DNA from: a virus
Taxonomy: Duplodnaviria > Caudoviricetes
Reading direction: 5' to 3' (one strand)
DNA length: 60,460 nt
Virus record (IMG/VR): IMGVR_UViG_3300042923_000250
Location: 1 to 60,460 of that record
Shown: positions 26,537 to 36,324 of the stretch, piece by piece
How positions within the stretch are numbered: position 1 is the stretch's first letter
Layout of the letters: the number at the start of each line of letters is the position of its first letter
The notes under the pieces: generated by a model
Databases searched by the model: none
Seen by the model: the letters and a program-made list of their open reading frames with translations, nothing else
What the model was told of the DNA's origin: nothing
Translations under genes and position numbers: made by a program

Positions 26537-26609
26537 TGGAATTAATAGGAGTCGAACCTATGACCTGACCCTTTTCAGTGCCTTGCTCTACCAACTGAGC
26601 TACAATTCC
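26537..26609 (-). tRNA. tRNA-Phe(GAA)-like with poorly paired anticodon stem
   Basis: GGAATTG TA GCTCAGTTGGTAGAGC A AGGCA CTGAAAA GGGTC AGGTC ATAGG TTCGACT CCTAT TAATTCC A. Confidence 0.75.
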
Positions 26610-26779: not shown

Positions 26780-26850
26780 AGGGCGATGATGGAATCGAAC
26801 CATCATATACAGATTAACAGTCTGCTGTTCTGCCGTTGGACTAATCACCC
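26780..26850 (-). tRNA. tRNA-Asn(GTT), no encoded CCA
   Basis: Full cloverleaf; GCAGA-CTGTTAA-TCTGT anticodon arm; U73. Confidence 0.88.
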
Positions 26851-30326: not shown

Positions 30327-31805
30327 CTATGCTATTTTCTTTAATTGTTCTAACACTTGCTTTGTTGCATATCTTCCGTTCGATGTCATTTGACGCTGCC
30401 ATGCTCCATGAGAAGGAGCCCAAACAAAACCGTTAGATTTTAAAATGTTCCTGATCTGCTCGGATGGCTTGCCGTCAAAGATGAGCTGTATTCTCATGAT
30501 CTCGCTATTTTCTACGACTTTGCAAATATCGCTTTGTACTGTTTCATTAGTTCCGGCTGTCTTAGCCTTTTGTAGCTGCTCAATGCGGTCTTTAGTGGCT
30601 TTAATCTTGGCGTTATTATTAGTGAGTGAATAACCCTCAAACGGTCGTGTGTGGTATGTGTTCCGGCTCATAAAATCCATAATGGAGTCGATAGTCTTTT
30701 GTTGCAATCCTTGGAAGCCTTGAAGGGTGCTATTCTTTTTATAGTAGGCGTTAGCGTCTTTCATAGTCTGCTGATATGCTTCTAACTCTACAAGTTTTTC
30801 CTGTAACTTTCTGATTGCGTCAGCGTCAGCACTTTTAATAATTTCTTTCCCTGTTAAAATATCGTGTAACTTCTTCACATAGCCGTTGATATAATCCAAC
30901 TCTTTCATGTGGGAATCTCTTGCGCTGTTCTGCTTTTCTTTGCGTCTTGTCGGAAAGTTTCCGGCTCCGCATATCATCACGCTGGGACACATCATTTCTA
31001 TATGGTTGCTTTTATTAATCCACTCGGCATATTTACGGGAATATCTTTCTGCTACGATTAAAGCGTCAGCCAATCTATGCGGTTTCTTTGTGCTGATCTG
31101 CTCTACAATGTCATATACTCGATTTACTTCTGCCTTGTAGCTGTTGGTCGTGCTGTTTGCTTTGTAATCCGAAAAGCTCCACATTCCAAGTGATTGTCTT
31201 GCGAGTGTTTCGTTGATAGAAAAATATATCCTTTCTATTGACGGCAGCTCTTCAGCGGTTTCTGGCTTCGTCTCTCCTTCTGGTTGCTCCGGTGTTTCTT
31301 CTATGGCTTCAATAACTTCCGGTTGCGCTTCAGTGATCTGCTCCGGTGCTTCTTTCGCTTTGAGATAATCGACAACATTATTGTAATGAGCCACCATTTC
31401 AAGTTGTTTCTTGTAGTATTCGCTATTCTCTCCAAAGTTCCATTTTTCACGGTCTGCATATTTCTGTGTTTGCTCTGCTTCTTCTTCGAAATGTGATTGA
31501 ATATGTTCAGTTGTGATGCCATGAATTATTTCGATTGTTGCGTGTTCCGGGTTCCACTCGTGAGCCGCTGCGTTCTTTGTCGGGTTGCTAGTGCAGATGA
31601 AAAGAGGCCAGAAAGCAACTGAAGATTTCGCGATGCTTAATTCTCCGTTTTTCTTAATCTTCTTTAGCGAAACATCATTGCCGCACCAGGTAACATTCCC
31701 GGGAACGTTTTCAACAAAATATAAACCATTATCATTTTTAAAGTAAGATCCTTCAATTTTTACAATATCGCCTGTTTTGATTTCAATTAAATTCTTATCT
31801 AACAT
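30327..31805 (-). CDS. Polyvalent-type multidomain protein (DUF3560-like C-terminal half)
   Basis: PSVMICGAGNFP, FEGYSLTNNNAKIK, RIQLIFDGKP...LKSNGFVWAPSHGAWQR; ATG 31805 after GGAGG. Confidence 0.75.
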   Translation of the reverse strand: MLDKNLIEIKTGDIVKIEGSYFKNDNGLYFVENVPGNVTWCGNDVSLKKIKKNGELSIAKSSVAFWPLFICTSNPTKNAAAHEWNPEHATIEIIHGITTEHIQSHFEEEAEQTQKYADREKWNFGENSEYYKKQLEMVAHYNNVVDYLKAKEAPEQITEAQPEVIEAIEETPEQPEGETKPETAEELPSIERIYFSINETLARQSLGMWSFSDYKANSTTNSYKAEVNRVYDIVEQISTKKPHRLADALIVAERYSRKYAEWINKSNHIEMMCPSVMICGAGNFPTRRKEKQNSARDSHMKELDYINGYVKKLHDILTGKEIIKSADADAIRKLQEKLVELEAYQQTMKDANAYYKKNSTLQGFQGLQQKTIDSIMDFMSRNTYHTRPFEGYSLTNNNAKIKATKDRIEQLQKAKTAGTNETVQSDICKVVENSEIMRIQLIFDGKPSEQIRNILKSNGFVWAPSHGAWQRQMTSNGRYATKQVLEQLKKIA

Positions 31806-31834: not shown

Positions 31835-31892
31835 GCCTATCGGATTTGGAACCGTCTGGCCGATGCATTACAGCCTTTCGGCTGTCCTCTGC
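31835..31892 (-). ncRNA. Twister-like self-cleaving ribozyme, circularly permuted (copy 1)
   Basis: GCAGAGG-ACAGCC gaaa GGCUG-U^AAUGC-AU-cgGCCaga-CGG UUCCAAAU CCG-auaGGC. Confidence 0.78.
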
Positions 31893-31894
31893 GG

Positions 31895-32131
31895 TTAATC
31901 TTGAATTTTCCATCCTTGTTTTATTCTAATAACTATAATCGTGCCTTCTGGTGCTTTAAATGGTTCTCTTGTTACTGTTTCTGCACTCCAAAGGGTAACA
32001 CCGCTAAAATTATGAGGTTGCATTTCAAAATCTGTGTTTTTATGAAATGCCTTGCCTTTATTTAAAACATCCTTGAAATCATAACCACTCGGTATAACTC
32101 TCGCCCTGCCTATGCATTTTCTTGCTGCCAT
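31895..32131 (-). CDS. Hypothetical protein (78 aa) flanked by two ribozymes
   Basis: ATG 32131 after AAAGGAG; stop abuts ribozyme copy 1. Confidence 0.7.
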   Translation of the reverse strand: MAARKCIGRARVIPSGYDFKDVLNKGKAFHKNTDFEMQPHNFSGVTLWSAETVTREPFKAPEGTIIVIRIKQGWKIQD

Positions 32132-32143
32132 ACTATCTCCTTT

Positions 32144-32208
32144 CTGATGTATCGGAATTTGGAACCGTGTCAGCCATTGCATTACTGGGATTTCTCCCAG
32201 TCCTCTGC
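32144..32208 (-). ncRNA. Twister-like self-cleaving ribozyme, circularly permuted (copy 2)
   Basis: GCAGAGG-ACUGGGA gaaa UCCCAG-U^AAUGC-AAU-ggCUGAca-CGG UUCCAAAUU CCG-auacaUCAG. Confidence 0.78.
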
Positions 32209-32217
32209 GAGGGATTA

Positions 32218-32553
32218 CTATAATATTTCAATGTTTGCGAAACAACCACCTAAACCTCTTTGATGTATTTTCACTATTACATAACACCCAACAAGATTAA
32301 CATTCCATGATTTCAGAGGTACAAATATATTTTGCTGTGCAGGGTTTACTGTATTTGCTTCAATTTCTCTAATATCGCATTGACCGAATAATCTATATAC
32401 TGCCTCTTGTACTCTGTACATGCTTTCTAATATCTCTTCATTCATTTCCTCTGTTGTTGCAGATAATTTACACTTGCATTCATTATCTTCAATAATATGT
32501 TGTGGCATTTTCAATTCGAATAACTCCTGATTTAATCCCTTCATAATTTCCAT
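32218..32553 (-). CDS. Hypothetical protein, first gene of the ribozyme-containing operon
   Basis: ORF with GGAAGGG RBS downstream of a TTTACA-17-TATACT promoter. Confidence 0.7.
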   Translation of the reverse strand: MEIMKGLNQELFELKMPQHIIEDNECKCKLSATTEEMNEEILESMYRVQEAVYRLFGQCDIREIEANTVNPAQQNIFVPLKSWNVNLVGCYVIVKIHQRGLGGCFANIEIL

Positions 32554-32586
32554 CCCTTCCGCTTCGTAGAGCTAACATCTATTTGG

Positions 32587-32699
32587 TATACTCAGTATAA
32601 TCTATATCCCCATAGATGTAAATAGACATATTTCACAAAATATATCCCCATAGATTGTGCAAAATATCTATATACCCATAGATGGTTATTTGGTATACT
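32587..32699. promoter_or_regulatory. Divergent promoters with three ATCTAT-N6-ATAGAT operator-like sites
   Basis: 32600-32617, 32638-32655 (imperfect) and 32666-32683; the first fills the spacer of the leftward promoter. Confidence 0.7.
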
Positions 32700-32718: not shown

Positions 32719-32913
32719 ATGGCAAAATATACAGAAGCCCAAGCGAGGGCAGTAAAAAAGTATTTGGATAATATCGGGGAGACAAAAGTTAGAGCCCCGA
32801 AAGAAGATATGCAGCGGTATAAACTAGAAGCAGAGAAAGCCGGATGCAGCCTTAACCAATTTATTATTGAAGCAATAGAAGAGAAGATAGCCAGGGCTAA
32901 TGGATATCATTAA
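32719..32913 (+). CDS. Ribbon-helix-helix DNA-binding protein
   Basis: TEAQARAVKKY...KVRAPKE...AEKAGCSLNQFIIEAIEEKI. Confidence 0.8.
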   Translation: MAKYTEAQARAVKKYLDNIGETKVRAPKEDMQRYKLEAEKAGCSLNQFIIEAIEEKIARANGYH

Positions 32914-34869: not shown

Positions 34870-36324
34870 TTATTCATAATTATAATTAATGAACTTCCAA
34901 TAGATTTTTATTTCATTACTAAATATAACTATTCTACTTATCAATGTATTTACCAAATTTCTTTTTTCATCAACTGTACCATTTTCAAAAATATATTCCG
35001 CGGTTCGAACGATTTTTTTACCGTCTTCTATGGAAAGATTAGGAGTATTATTGTTAGCCAATTCATTAAGCTCACTTTCAAGTTGACCGCGCTCTTTTTG
35101 TAAAGGTTCTATTCTAGACGAGATGTCTGATAATGGGATTGTACCTATTTGATATAAATCCATTAATTTATTTACTTGTTTACCGATTTCTGAAATTCTA
35201 TGATTAATTATAATTGCTTTATCGTCTGATGTTTTACTTTGACCTTGTTCTTTCATTTGTTGAATTATATCTGGATTATGAGACAATATTAATATTTGTT
35301 CTTTTATCATCTCATCAAGTACATCTTCCCTGTAGTTTGGGTTTTTGCAGAAGTCAATCTTTTTCATTTCTCGGTTTCCGTCTCTAGAATAACAAATATA
35401 GTAGAAATATGTTCCTGATTTTTTGCTAATTACGCATTTTGTAAAATATCTAGCTCCACAGTTTCCACAAAATATCATTCCAGACAATAGATGTTTTCCT
35501 TTGTATGGGGATTTTTGCGAATCGGTCAACCCACGTTCTAATTCTCTATAACGCTTTTGCGTGCTTATAAATATATCATCGGATATAATTGGCTCGTGTT
35601 GTCCTTGATACTCTTGTTCTTTATACTTTATCTTTCCAATATAAACTGTATTTTTTAGAATTTTCCCGACGGTTCCGTGATTGTTCCATCCAGAATATCT
35701 ATTACTATATTTTGATTTCATGATATCAGTTATTCCGTGAATTGTGTTGCCATGCAAGAATAGGTCAAATATTTCTCTAACTTGCATCGCCTCATATTCG
35801 TTTACAATAAGGTCACCGTCAACAAAGTCGTATCCGATTGGCGCGCCGCTTCCACCATGCCAATATCCATCCTTTGCCCTACCTATATGACCCATAGCCA
35901 TACGTTCTTTAATTTGCTCCCTCTCTAACTGTGCAAACACAGACAGGATTCCGATCATGGCCCGACCGAACGGAGACGATGTATCGAAGTTTTCATTCAT
36001 TGAAACAAAATCTACATTGTTTTTTAGAAATACATCCTCGATTAAATACAAGGTATCTTTTTGGGAACGAGATAATCGGTCAAGTTTATAAACCAACACT
36101 AAATCGATATTGCCAGATTTTATGTCGGATGTCATCTTTGATAGCGCAGGACGTTCTAAATTTCCGCCAGAATATCCGGGGTCTGTATATGTATTTGCAA
36201 CTATCCACCCTTTAGCTTCACTGTATTTTTTTAAACGTTCTGTTTGCATCGGTATAGAATACCCTTCATCTGCTTGCTCTTGCGTTGATACTCTTATATA
36301 AATAGCAGCTCTAATATTGTCCAT
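34870..36324 (-). CDS. int: Large serine recombinase (integrase)
   Basis: YIRVST catalytic Ser, LDRLSR, APIGY recombinase domain, CGNCG zinc ribbon, coiled coil. Confidence 0.95.
   Translation of the reverse strand: MDNIRAAIYIRVSTQEQADEGYSIPMQTERLKKYSEAKGWIVANTYTDPGYSGGNLERPALSKMTSDIKSGNIDLVLVYKLDRLSRSQKDTLYLIEDVFLKNNVDFVSMNENFDTSSPFGRAMIGILSVFAQLEREQIKERMAMGHIGRAKDGYWHGGSGAPIGYDFVDGDLIVNEYEAMQVREIFDLFLHGNTIHGITDIMKSKYSNRYSGWNNHGTVGKILKNTVYIGKIKYKEQEYQGQHEPIISDDIFISTQKRYRELERGLTDSQKSPYKGKHLLSGMIFCGNCGARYFTKCVISKKSGTYFYYICYSRDGNREMKKIDFCKNPNYREDVLDEMIKEQILILSHNPDIIQQMKEQGQSKTSDDKAIIINHRISEIGKQVNKLMDLYQIGTIPLSDISSRIEPLQKERGQLESELNELANNNTPNLSIEDGKKIVRTAEYIFENGTVDEKRNLVNTLISRIVIFSNEIKIYWKFINYNYE

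Follow-up and report, generated by a model that had tools for sequence, protein, structure and literature searches.

Two RNA elements in adjacent gaps of a leftward phage operon, here called A and B, are probably genuine type-P5 twister self-cleaving ribozymes, and by sequence they appear to be divergent members of a phage subclass that carries an extra helix. Judged by analogy, their most likely role would be the self-cleavage of a polycistronic mRNA. The window, by which we mean the whole stretch of DNA analysed (60,460 bases), is a complete record with direct terminal repeats at its ends, and the phage is temperate and tailed. The leftward block of the genome carries, in order, an HNH endonuclease gene, the small terminase, two tRNA genes, and the large terminase, portal, major head and tape-measure genes. 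The operon bearing the two elements stands at the head of this block on the minus strand, with a promoter-like site upstream, and several small ORFs lie beyond its 492-aa gene in the same minus-strand block. The features of the locus are listed here.

34870-36324: serine-integrase-like gene
32594..32622, minus strand: promoter-like site TTTACA-17-TATACT ahead of the operon (consensus match only)
32218..32553, minus strand: 111-aa ORF, gene 1 of the operon, with A after its stop
32152..32209, minus strand: A, putative type-P5 twister (Rfam match, model 1-58)
5' side of A: C32209; P2 GCA 32208-32206; GAG 32205-32203; T1 GGA 32203-32201
P1 of A (6 bp): CUGGGA 32200-32195, loop GAAA 32194-32191, UCCCAG 32190-32185
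U32184/A32183, minus strand: predicted cut site of A (U-A step in the Rfam alignment)
3' side of A: P2 UGC 32181-32179; L2 AAUGG 32178-32174; P4 CGG 32167-32165
L4 of A: T1 partner UCC 32163-32161; AAAUU 32160-32156; P4 CCG 32155-32153
32144..32173, minus strand: putative extra stem of A, CUGA 32173-32170 with UCAG 32147-32144 (complementarity)
31895..32131, minus strand: 78-aa ORF between A and B (GGAG 6 nt before ATG 32131)
31840..31893, minus strand: B, putative type-P5 twister (Rfam match, model 1-58)
5' side of B: P2 GCA 31892-31890; GAG 31889-31887; T1 GGA 31887-31885
P1 of B (5 bp): CAGCC 31884-31880, GAAA 31879-31876, GGCUG 31875-31871
U31870/A31869, minus strand: predicted cut site of B (U-A step in the Rfam alignment)
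3' side of B: P2 UGC 31867-31865; T2 AU 31864-31863; P4 CGG 31854-31852
L4 of B: T1 partner UCC 31850-31848; T2 partner AU 31845-31844; P4 CCG 31843-31841
31835..31860, minus strand: extra stem of B, GCC 31860-31858 with GGC 31837-31835 (subclass alignment)
30327..31805, minus strand: 492-aa gene downstream of B (GGAGG 7 nt before ATG 31805)

The GCAGAG of A begins at 32208, 9 nt past the TAG stop (32220-32218) of the 111-aa ORF, and that of B at 31892, 2 nt past the TAA stop (31897-31895) of the 78-aa ORF. Both UAAUGC and GCAGAG, which hold the active-site U-A-A and G-A-G letters, are exact in the two elements. All of the strongly conserved Rfam core letters are present with the exception of those that pair in the pseudoknots T1 and T2, and these are altered on both sides. 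P4 (CGG/CCG) and P2 (GCA/UGC) are the same in A and B, while the P1 sequences differ. Position four of P2 holds a C.A mismatch in A and in B alike, and 14 of the 62 family members aligned likewise lack this pair. L4 of B (CGG U UCC AA AU CCG) is an exact fit to the fixed-length loop with its conserved U, AA and closing G-C, and L4 of A has one surplus base (AAAUU). Minimum free energy folds of the core recovered P1 and P2 in both elements and P4 in A as well; in longer contexts competing pairings appeared, and z-scores were just -1.1 to -1.9.

A sequence-only reading of this DNA had described the same motif in both intergenic gaps on the minus strand, 2-9 nt past the stops, with stems that differ in sequence and stay paired: a GAAA-closed P1 (CUGGGA/UCCCAG in A, CAGCC/GGCUG in B) and a second stem (CUGA/UCAG in A, GCC/GGC in B). 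These were found where that reading had placed them, as were the AU-type T2 and the lack of an evident P5 stem. The cleavage positions that it predicted, 32184/32183 and 31870/31869, fall on the U-A step within the consensus UAAUGC, the step defined as the twister cut site in a review (PMC5408937). The elements had also been called permuted and twister-like. Their parts are indeed arranged as in a molecule whose chain opens at P5, 3' of L2, but this is the order of the Rfam type-P5 model and thus a catalogued natural type (RF02684; PMC5408937, PMC10085705), not a new permutation.

The full Rfam Twister-P5 model (RF02684, positions 1-58) matched A with 34.1 bits and B with 35.3 bits, 2-3.5 bits short of the gathering score of 37.6 bits. 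E-values were 1.8e-5 for A and 9e-6 for B in a search of 481 nt, and 0.0023 and 0.0011, respectively, window-wide. The earlier proposal of twister identity, for which a search with Infernal and Rfam models had been suggested, was thus borne out by full-length matches, though below the gathering score, together with the core letters and the complementarity of T1 and T2. Since A and B lie below the gathering score, a default Rfam scan of the window lists just two tRNAs, and scanning the whole window at E<=1 revealed no other candidate family and no third twister copy. The shortfall in score falls at the T1 and T2 positions that are changed on both sides; a covariance model gives no credit for pseudoknot pairing, and T1 and T2 were checked separately. 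A model that we built from 62 phage sequences, A and B among them (model R1), scored A at 36.2 bits and B at 43.7 bits, both being in its training set, and matched nothing in the window but these two. GCAGAGG-N8-30-TAATGC was found at two places in the window; the mean over 100 shuffles was 0.05, and none of the shuffles contained two or more. The loop word CGGTTCCAAAT alone is not significant: with up to two mismatches it has 20 matches against 21 expected, and the only two exact ones both lie inside the elements.

T1 is GGA:UCC in both A and B, with three Watson-Crick pairs between L1 and L4. A general type-P5 pattern scan of viral contigs picked out more than 120 contigs, with 138 matches listed, and among those listed T1 was fully Watson-Crick in 131, falling into nine pairing classes that included GUG/CAC (75), GGG/CCC (26) and the GGA/UCC of the window (7). 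When 62 sequences were aligned, T1 was paired in all 62, and the pairing of the whole structure came to 90.5%; shuffles gave 72.9%, none of the 500 reaching the observed value, and shifted registers of the alignment 28.5-42%. T2, which joins L2 and L4 by two pairs that are usually GC:GC, is AU:AU in B, directly 3' of UGC, and either AU:AU or AA:UU in A, where again only A-U pairs are formed. Across the family T2 covaries in two registers, after the fourth P2 pair (G-GC with GC) or directly after UGC, the latter as AC with GU in 25 cases among the matches listed. Because the two registers coexist, the column of this 2-bp pseudoknot is just 76% paired in the general alignment. A T2 of A-U pairs only occurred in 0 of the 138 viral matches listed, and was seen elsewhere only in L014 (AU/AU) and in L169 (AA/UU), which scores 53 bits. 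Within the subclass of B, T2 takes six Watson-Crick combinations (GA/UC, AG/CU, GU/AC, AA/UU, GG/CC and AU/AU). Covariation in related phages, which the earlier reading had named as a check, is seen in T1, in T2 and in the extra helix of B described below. The fold of A and B is supported because the changes in T1 and T2 are compensated and the family covaries.

Scans with the AAAU loop gave two true relatives, L014 and L016, both from one metagenome. They were the only twisters among 18 metagenome stretches, none was found in 13 genome-contig stretches, and the rejected stretches of both kinds scored at most 18.8 bits with model R1. The same scans turned up L042, a twister-like RNA in which the halves of T2 are mismatched (GC against AU). 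No stretch in viral contigs fitted the strict pattern, a blastn search of 50,697 phage records gave no match, and L004, which matched a looser pattern, is not a twister. The closest relatives of B are L014:252-307 and L016:379-434, the latter being the nearest, with 38.1 bits, above the RF02684 cut-off. A second twister, itself above the cut-off, lies 316 nt downstream in L014 and 291 nt downstream in L016, and A and B are spaced 316 nt apart in the window. Homologues of the 111-aa protein are present with 78% identity in L014 and 57% in L016, with a B-like twister directly after each, so that the order in both is 111-aa homologue, B-like twister, small ORF and second twister. The small ORFs in this twister-bounded slot (78 aa in the window, 77 aa in L014 and 66 aa in L016) show no detectable relationship to one another, although the three contigs that carry them are related. 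For A itself no homologue was found, and it stands as a single sequence.

The low scores could also be read as decay. A and B would then be twisters of which none or one still cuts, kept as structured intergenic spacers, for instance as 3' hairpins that slow exonucleases, or just as leftovers from recombination of gene modules. We consider this unlikely, and inactive, decayed copies are possible chiefly in the case of A. Apart from the sub-threshold Rfam scores, such a reading can draw on the weak, A-U-only T2, the 1-nt loop insertion in A and the C.A mismatch at the fourth P2 position. In a study of type-P1 forms only, the 2-bp pseudoknot was the element most sensitive to weakening, and loop insertions reduced cleavage on average (PMC11662667). 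Decay does occur in the family, as the mismatched T2 of L042 and the single mismatch in T2 of L016 (AC against AU) indicate, although the latter could be an intermediate between AC/GU and AU/AU. On the other hand, every letter of the catalytic core is intact in both A and B, and a change on one strand of T1 or T2 is matched by one on the other, a pattern that a decaying sequence would not be expected to show. In addition, L014 retains AU/AU, L169 reaches its high score with an AA/UU T2, and the extra helix of B is conserved. Natural twisters also tolerate many imperfections: about 94% of 2,600 were cleaved in a high-throughput assay in which imperfect stems were tolerated (PMC11662667).

The extra helix of B encloses P4 through the linkers AGA and AUA and lies beyond the 3' end of the Rfam model. 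We defined the subclass of B by an L2 strand that ends in G-N-C-AGA before P4 and a tail after P4 of A-Y-A-G-N'-C. This pattern was found at 15 viral loci, all 15 of which pass the Rfam cut-off with 40-55.5 bits. The 3-bp helix is present in the same register in 13 of the 14 unique subclass sequences, B of the window included, and the sole sequence with a broken helix is L176; in shifted registers the helix is seen in 0-1 of the 14. Five combinations occur (GGC/GCC in six sequences, GCC/GGC in three, GUC/GGC in two, and GCC/GGU and GUC/GAC in one each). On the evidence of these aligned sequences, the extra helix of B's subclass is real and conserved. It is clear only within this subclass (AGA-CGG...CCG-A) at the fixed register, and a crude test for an extra stem in all 143 unique sequences among the matches listed was nearly flat (3.36 against 3.08 in the control). 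The extra stem of A has 4 bp and also encloses P4, with linkers CA and AUACA and a register unlike that of B. It is probably comparable to the conserved stem of B's subclass, a comparison that is by analogy only because no homologue of A was found and the register differs. These GCC/GGC and CUGA/UCAG stems are not P5. Leader and tail show no excess pairing: the longest leader-tail helix in the family sample was 4.34, against 4.42 in permuted controls.

In twisters that lack P3, the 2-bp pseudoknot is described as the last stacked element, and P3 might stabilise it (PMC11662667). We infer that the extra helix may take this role of P3 in stabilising the 2-bp pseudoknot. A fuller reading, in which the helix is an undescribed substitute for P3 that permits a weak T2 and the slot between twisters serves as a single-gene cassette that can be exchanged, is one that we put forward tentatively, as it has a good deal less than an even chance of being right. 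What can be said of the subclass is that a type-P5 group with a conserved 3-bp helix outside the Rfam model varies T2 very freely, A-U-only pairs included. Compared with RF02684 (clan CL00120), A and B share the order of parts, the core letters, the complementary pseudoknots and the position after a stop codon. They differ in their sub-threshold scores, in the A-U-only T2, in having three P2 pairs followed by the C.A mismatch, in the additional loop base of A, and in the extra helix between the 5' side of L2 and the 3' tail that B, and probably A, carries. If A and B are twisters, as we think probable, the default Rfam cut-off misses a real ribozyme that was recognised by a reader without tools. 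Because covariance models penalise compensated changes in pseudoknots, twister counts for phage genomes are probably too low where T1 and T2 are unusual.

The setting of A and B is a common one. Among the matches listed, 141 viral type-P5 twisters lie a median of 3 nt past a same-strand stop codon; 103 of 137 are within 30 nt of such a stop, and eight are inside long ORFs. Arrays of two to six copies occur at 14 loci among the matches listed, with six copies in L163, where each interval between twisters holds one ORF, and five in L067. Since the layout after a stop codon is common in phages, A and B represent a correct but ordinary find. We regard the extra helix and the T2 made of A-U pairs only as small variations; the layout and the processing idea were already known, and the known picture is unchanged.

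A single leftward transcript is suggested by the promoter-like site and by the absence of a predicted terminator on the minus strand of the operon region; there is also no U-run downstream of the hairpins of A and B. The promoter-like site (32622-32594) is overlapped by three 19-nt palindromic, operator-like repeats, and the number of such promoter-like sites in the region equals the shuffled expectation. Transcription would run from about 32590 through the 111-aa gene, A, the 78-aa ORF, B and the 492-aa gene, and onward. Each element, about 60 nt long, would fold during transcription into P2, the P1 hairpin and P4, locked by T1 (GGA:UCC) and the A-U pairs of T2. By what is known of the family, the 2'-OH groups of U32184 and U31870 would then attack the next phosphate. 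After cleavage by a twister, the upstream piece ends in a 2',3'-cyclic phosphate and the downstream piece starts with a 5'-OH. The operon RNA would be cut into three: a message for the 111-aa protein with the P1 hairpin at its 3' end, a message of 314 nt (A32183..U31870) that carries the 78-aa ORF, and a message for the 492-aa gene and the later genes. The second and third pieces would begin with a 5'-OH, and in each the P4 module would lie just ahead of the ribosome-binding site. 5'-OH ends resist some bacterial 5'-dependent RNases. The cuts may uncouple the stability and translation of neighbouring cistrons, an idea that is in print for prophage ribozymes.

The sequence-only reading had likewise seen in A and B a system that cuts the transcript into units. 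This remains the likely role, but the idea itself is not new, as the processing of prophage operon RNA into single-gene mRNAs was proposed for prophage hammerheads in a report that also raised circular or spliced RNA (PMC3088659). Reviews describe ribozymes of this kind as grouped around phage genes and close to one another, with a possible part in the processing of polycistronic RNA (PMC6765202, PMC10085705). The suggestion that the operon carries early or anti-defence genes found no support. Neither the 111-aa nor the 78-aa product matches a family in Pfam or PHROG, and a look-up of both in a protein atlas gave nothing usable. The 492-aa product matches PHROG 19458, 'primase', over residues 194-489 with an E-value of 5.9e-82, and its homologues in Clostridium phage Maintenon and Faecalibacterium phage FP_Toutatis carry a primase annotation. 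Ten twister-flanked ORFs from other viral arrays had no named PHROG function.

The ends of the released piece had further been called compatible with RtcB-type circularisation. In a fuller form of this idea that we considered for the 314-nt piece, an RtcB-type host ligase, or the reverse twister reaction, would join A32183 to U31870 and yield an exonuclease-proof mRNA for the 78-aa protein, its ends being held by a hybrid active site. The end chemistry of 5'-OH and 2',3'-cyclic phosphate suits RtcB, and the 3' half of A matches the 5' half of B in P2 (UGC/GCA) and T1 (UCC/GGA), so that a hybrid twister could form. We know of no circle from phage operons. The hybrid fold is not conserved: the neighbouring twisters of L014 and L016 carry different T1 pairs (UCC, and UGG in the second), so that a hybrid would mispair, and a fully paired hybrid T1 is possible in just 14 of 21 neighbouring pairs of viral arrays among the matches listed, and fails in the other 7. 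The arrays with five or six ribozymes, in which every ribozyme flanks a single ORF, have the appearance of serial processing. Perreault et al. searched prophage hammerhead arrays for RNA that had been circularised or spliced, and report none (PMC3088659). Circularisation is thus very improbable, and the P3-substitute and cassette reading is the likelier of the two. A resemblance by chance, or a terminator or protein-binding hairpin that mimics a twister, might be argued from the scores under the cut-off and from the fact that 7 of 14 control genomes also hold sub-threshold Twister-P5 matches at E<=1, but is very unlikely given two full-length matches in adjacent gaps of the same strand at E of about 1e-5 each, complementarity in T1 and T2 (pairings that earn no score in the Rfam model), homologues that exceed the cut-off, and hairpins with no U-run after them on a strand with no predicted terminator.

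Two other features near the predicted cuts were considered. The downstream RNAs would begin with A-AUG, an AUG that is in frame with and open into the next ORF (95 and 513 codons). As a leaderless start this was rejected, since the frame closes after 2-14 codons in L003, L014 and L016, and is open for at least 40 codons in 44 of the 141 twisters listed, against 48 and 49 for the other frames, as expected of chance. The 95-aa reading from ATG 32182, which starts within the UAAUGC core of A, and a 528-aa reading from ATG 31913 that passes through B are both probably spurious. A 7-bp pairing of CAAAUCC (31848-31842) with GGAUUUG (31815-31809), between the loop of B and the region beside the ribosome-binding site of the 492-aa gene, was attributed to chance, with 6 of 7 pairs in L014 and the pairing absent in L016.

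Among known systems, the hammerhead ribozymes of prophages are similar to A and B in that both flank single genes or short gene blocks, with several per operon (Perreault et al. 2011, PMC3088659). They belong to another ribozyme class, and the prophage arrays have been cleaved in vitro and in E. coli (PMC3088659), whereas A and B are known from their sequence alone. With viroid-like RNAs and retrozymes the likeness lies in a unit bounded by two ribozymes, with ligatable 5'-OH and 2',3'-cyclic phosphate ends (PMC7761336); those are eukaryotic or RNA replicons, unlike the phage operon of A and B. A third comparison comes from FP_Toutatis, where the operon of the 492-aa homologue holds seven matches to RAGATH-5 (RF02685), six of them above the cut-off; none was found in Clostridium phage Maintenon. 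A literature search on RAGATH-5 returned no paper text, and the family is typed as a ribozyme in Rfam. It is unrelated to twister as an RNA family, but occupies the same niche in gaps directly after CDS ends near the 492-aa homologue, which is flanked by RAGATH-5 matches, six of the seven lying 4-7 nt after CDS ends. In a related cultured phage, then, these gaps are filled by another RNA that Rfam types as a ribozyme, so what seems to be needed is a cut and not a particular fold.

The two metagenome stretches with the closest relatives of twister B, L014 and L016, each carry a second twister downstream. These, together with RNAs found on other contigs, were as follows:

L014:568-619 and L016:143-92 (the latter on the minus strand), second twisters of the two relatives
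L042:4190-4243, minus strand, twister-like RNA (42 bits, model built in this analysis)
L163:5773-8573, viral contig, array of six consecutive type-P5 twisters
L067:3270-5404, viral contig, array of five consecutive type-P5 twisters
L169:8160-8327, viral contig, RT-14 RNA (RF02921; 70 bits)

In both second twisters, the last G of GAG, which is usually invariant, is replaced by U and its loop partner C by A (UGG:CCA). The joint replacement is a compensated change, and the T1 pair concerned is G-C throughout the alignment (62/62 sequences). Covariation was also observed in P4 (CCG/CGG vs CUG/CAG). In the L042 RNA, GC in L2 faces AU in the loop, so that T2 is unable to form, and P4 is likewise imperfect; this RNA is possibly a decayed copy.

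Twisters within the L163 and L067 arrays are spaced 273-811 nt apart. Each interval of the L163 array holds one ORF (62-239 aa), and no PHROG match was obtained for these ORFs. The RT-14 RNA on L169 occurs together with two type-P5 twisters.

A comparable layout was seen for RAGATH-5 (RF02685) in Faecalibacterium phage FP_Toutatis (MG711466), with seven matches between 639 and 5034, six of which exceed the cut-off. Six of the seven lie 4-7 nt downstream of annotated CDS ends in a single operon, and matches flank a gene annotated as primase on both sides. None of the seven is annotated in the record.

In the window, the longest-ORF readings, 32182-31895 (95 aa) and 31913-30327 (528 aa), pass through the ribozymes, the former starting at the AUG within the UAAUGC core. 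Proper ribosome-binding sites precede the alternative starts at 32131 and 31805, and gene callers may annotate the over-long forms. Other features of the window were:

32580-32592 and 32687-32699, 13-nt direct repeat
32719-32913, divergent 64-aa gene (HicB-family match)
26537-26609 and 26780-26850, pair of tRNA genes (minus strand)

Between the two copies of the direct repeat, a 19-nt palindrome (consensus ATCTATATCCCCATAGATG) occurs three times, at 32600, 32638 and 32666. The cluster (32580-32699) lies between the twister operon and the 64-aa gene, and its palindromes look like operators for a divergent promoter pair. The tRNA genes have the small-terminase gene on one side and an exonuclease-like gene on the other.
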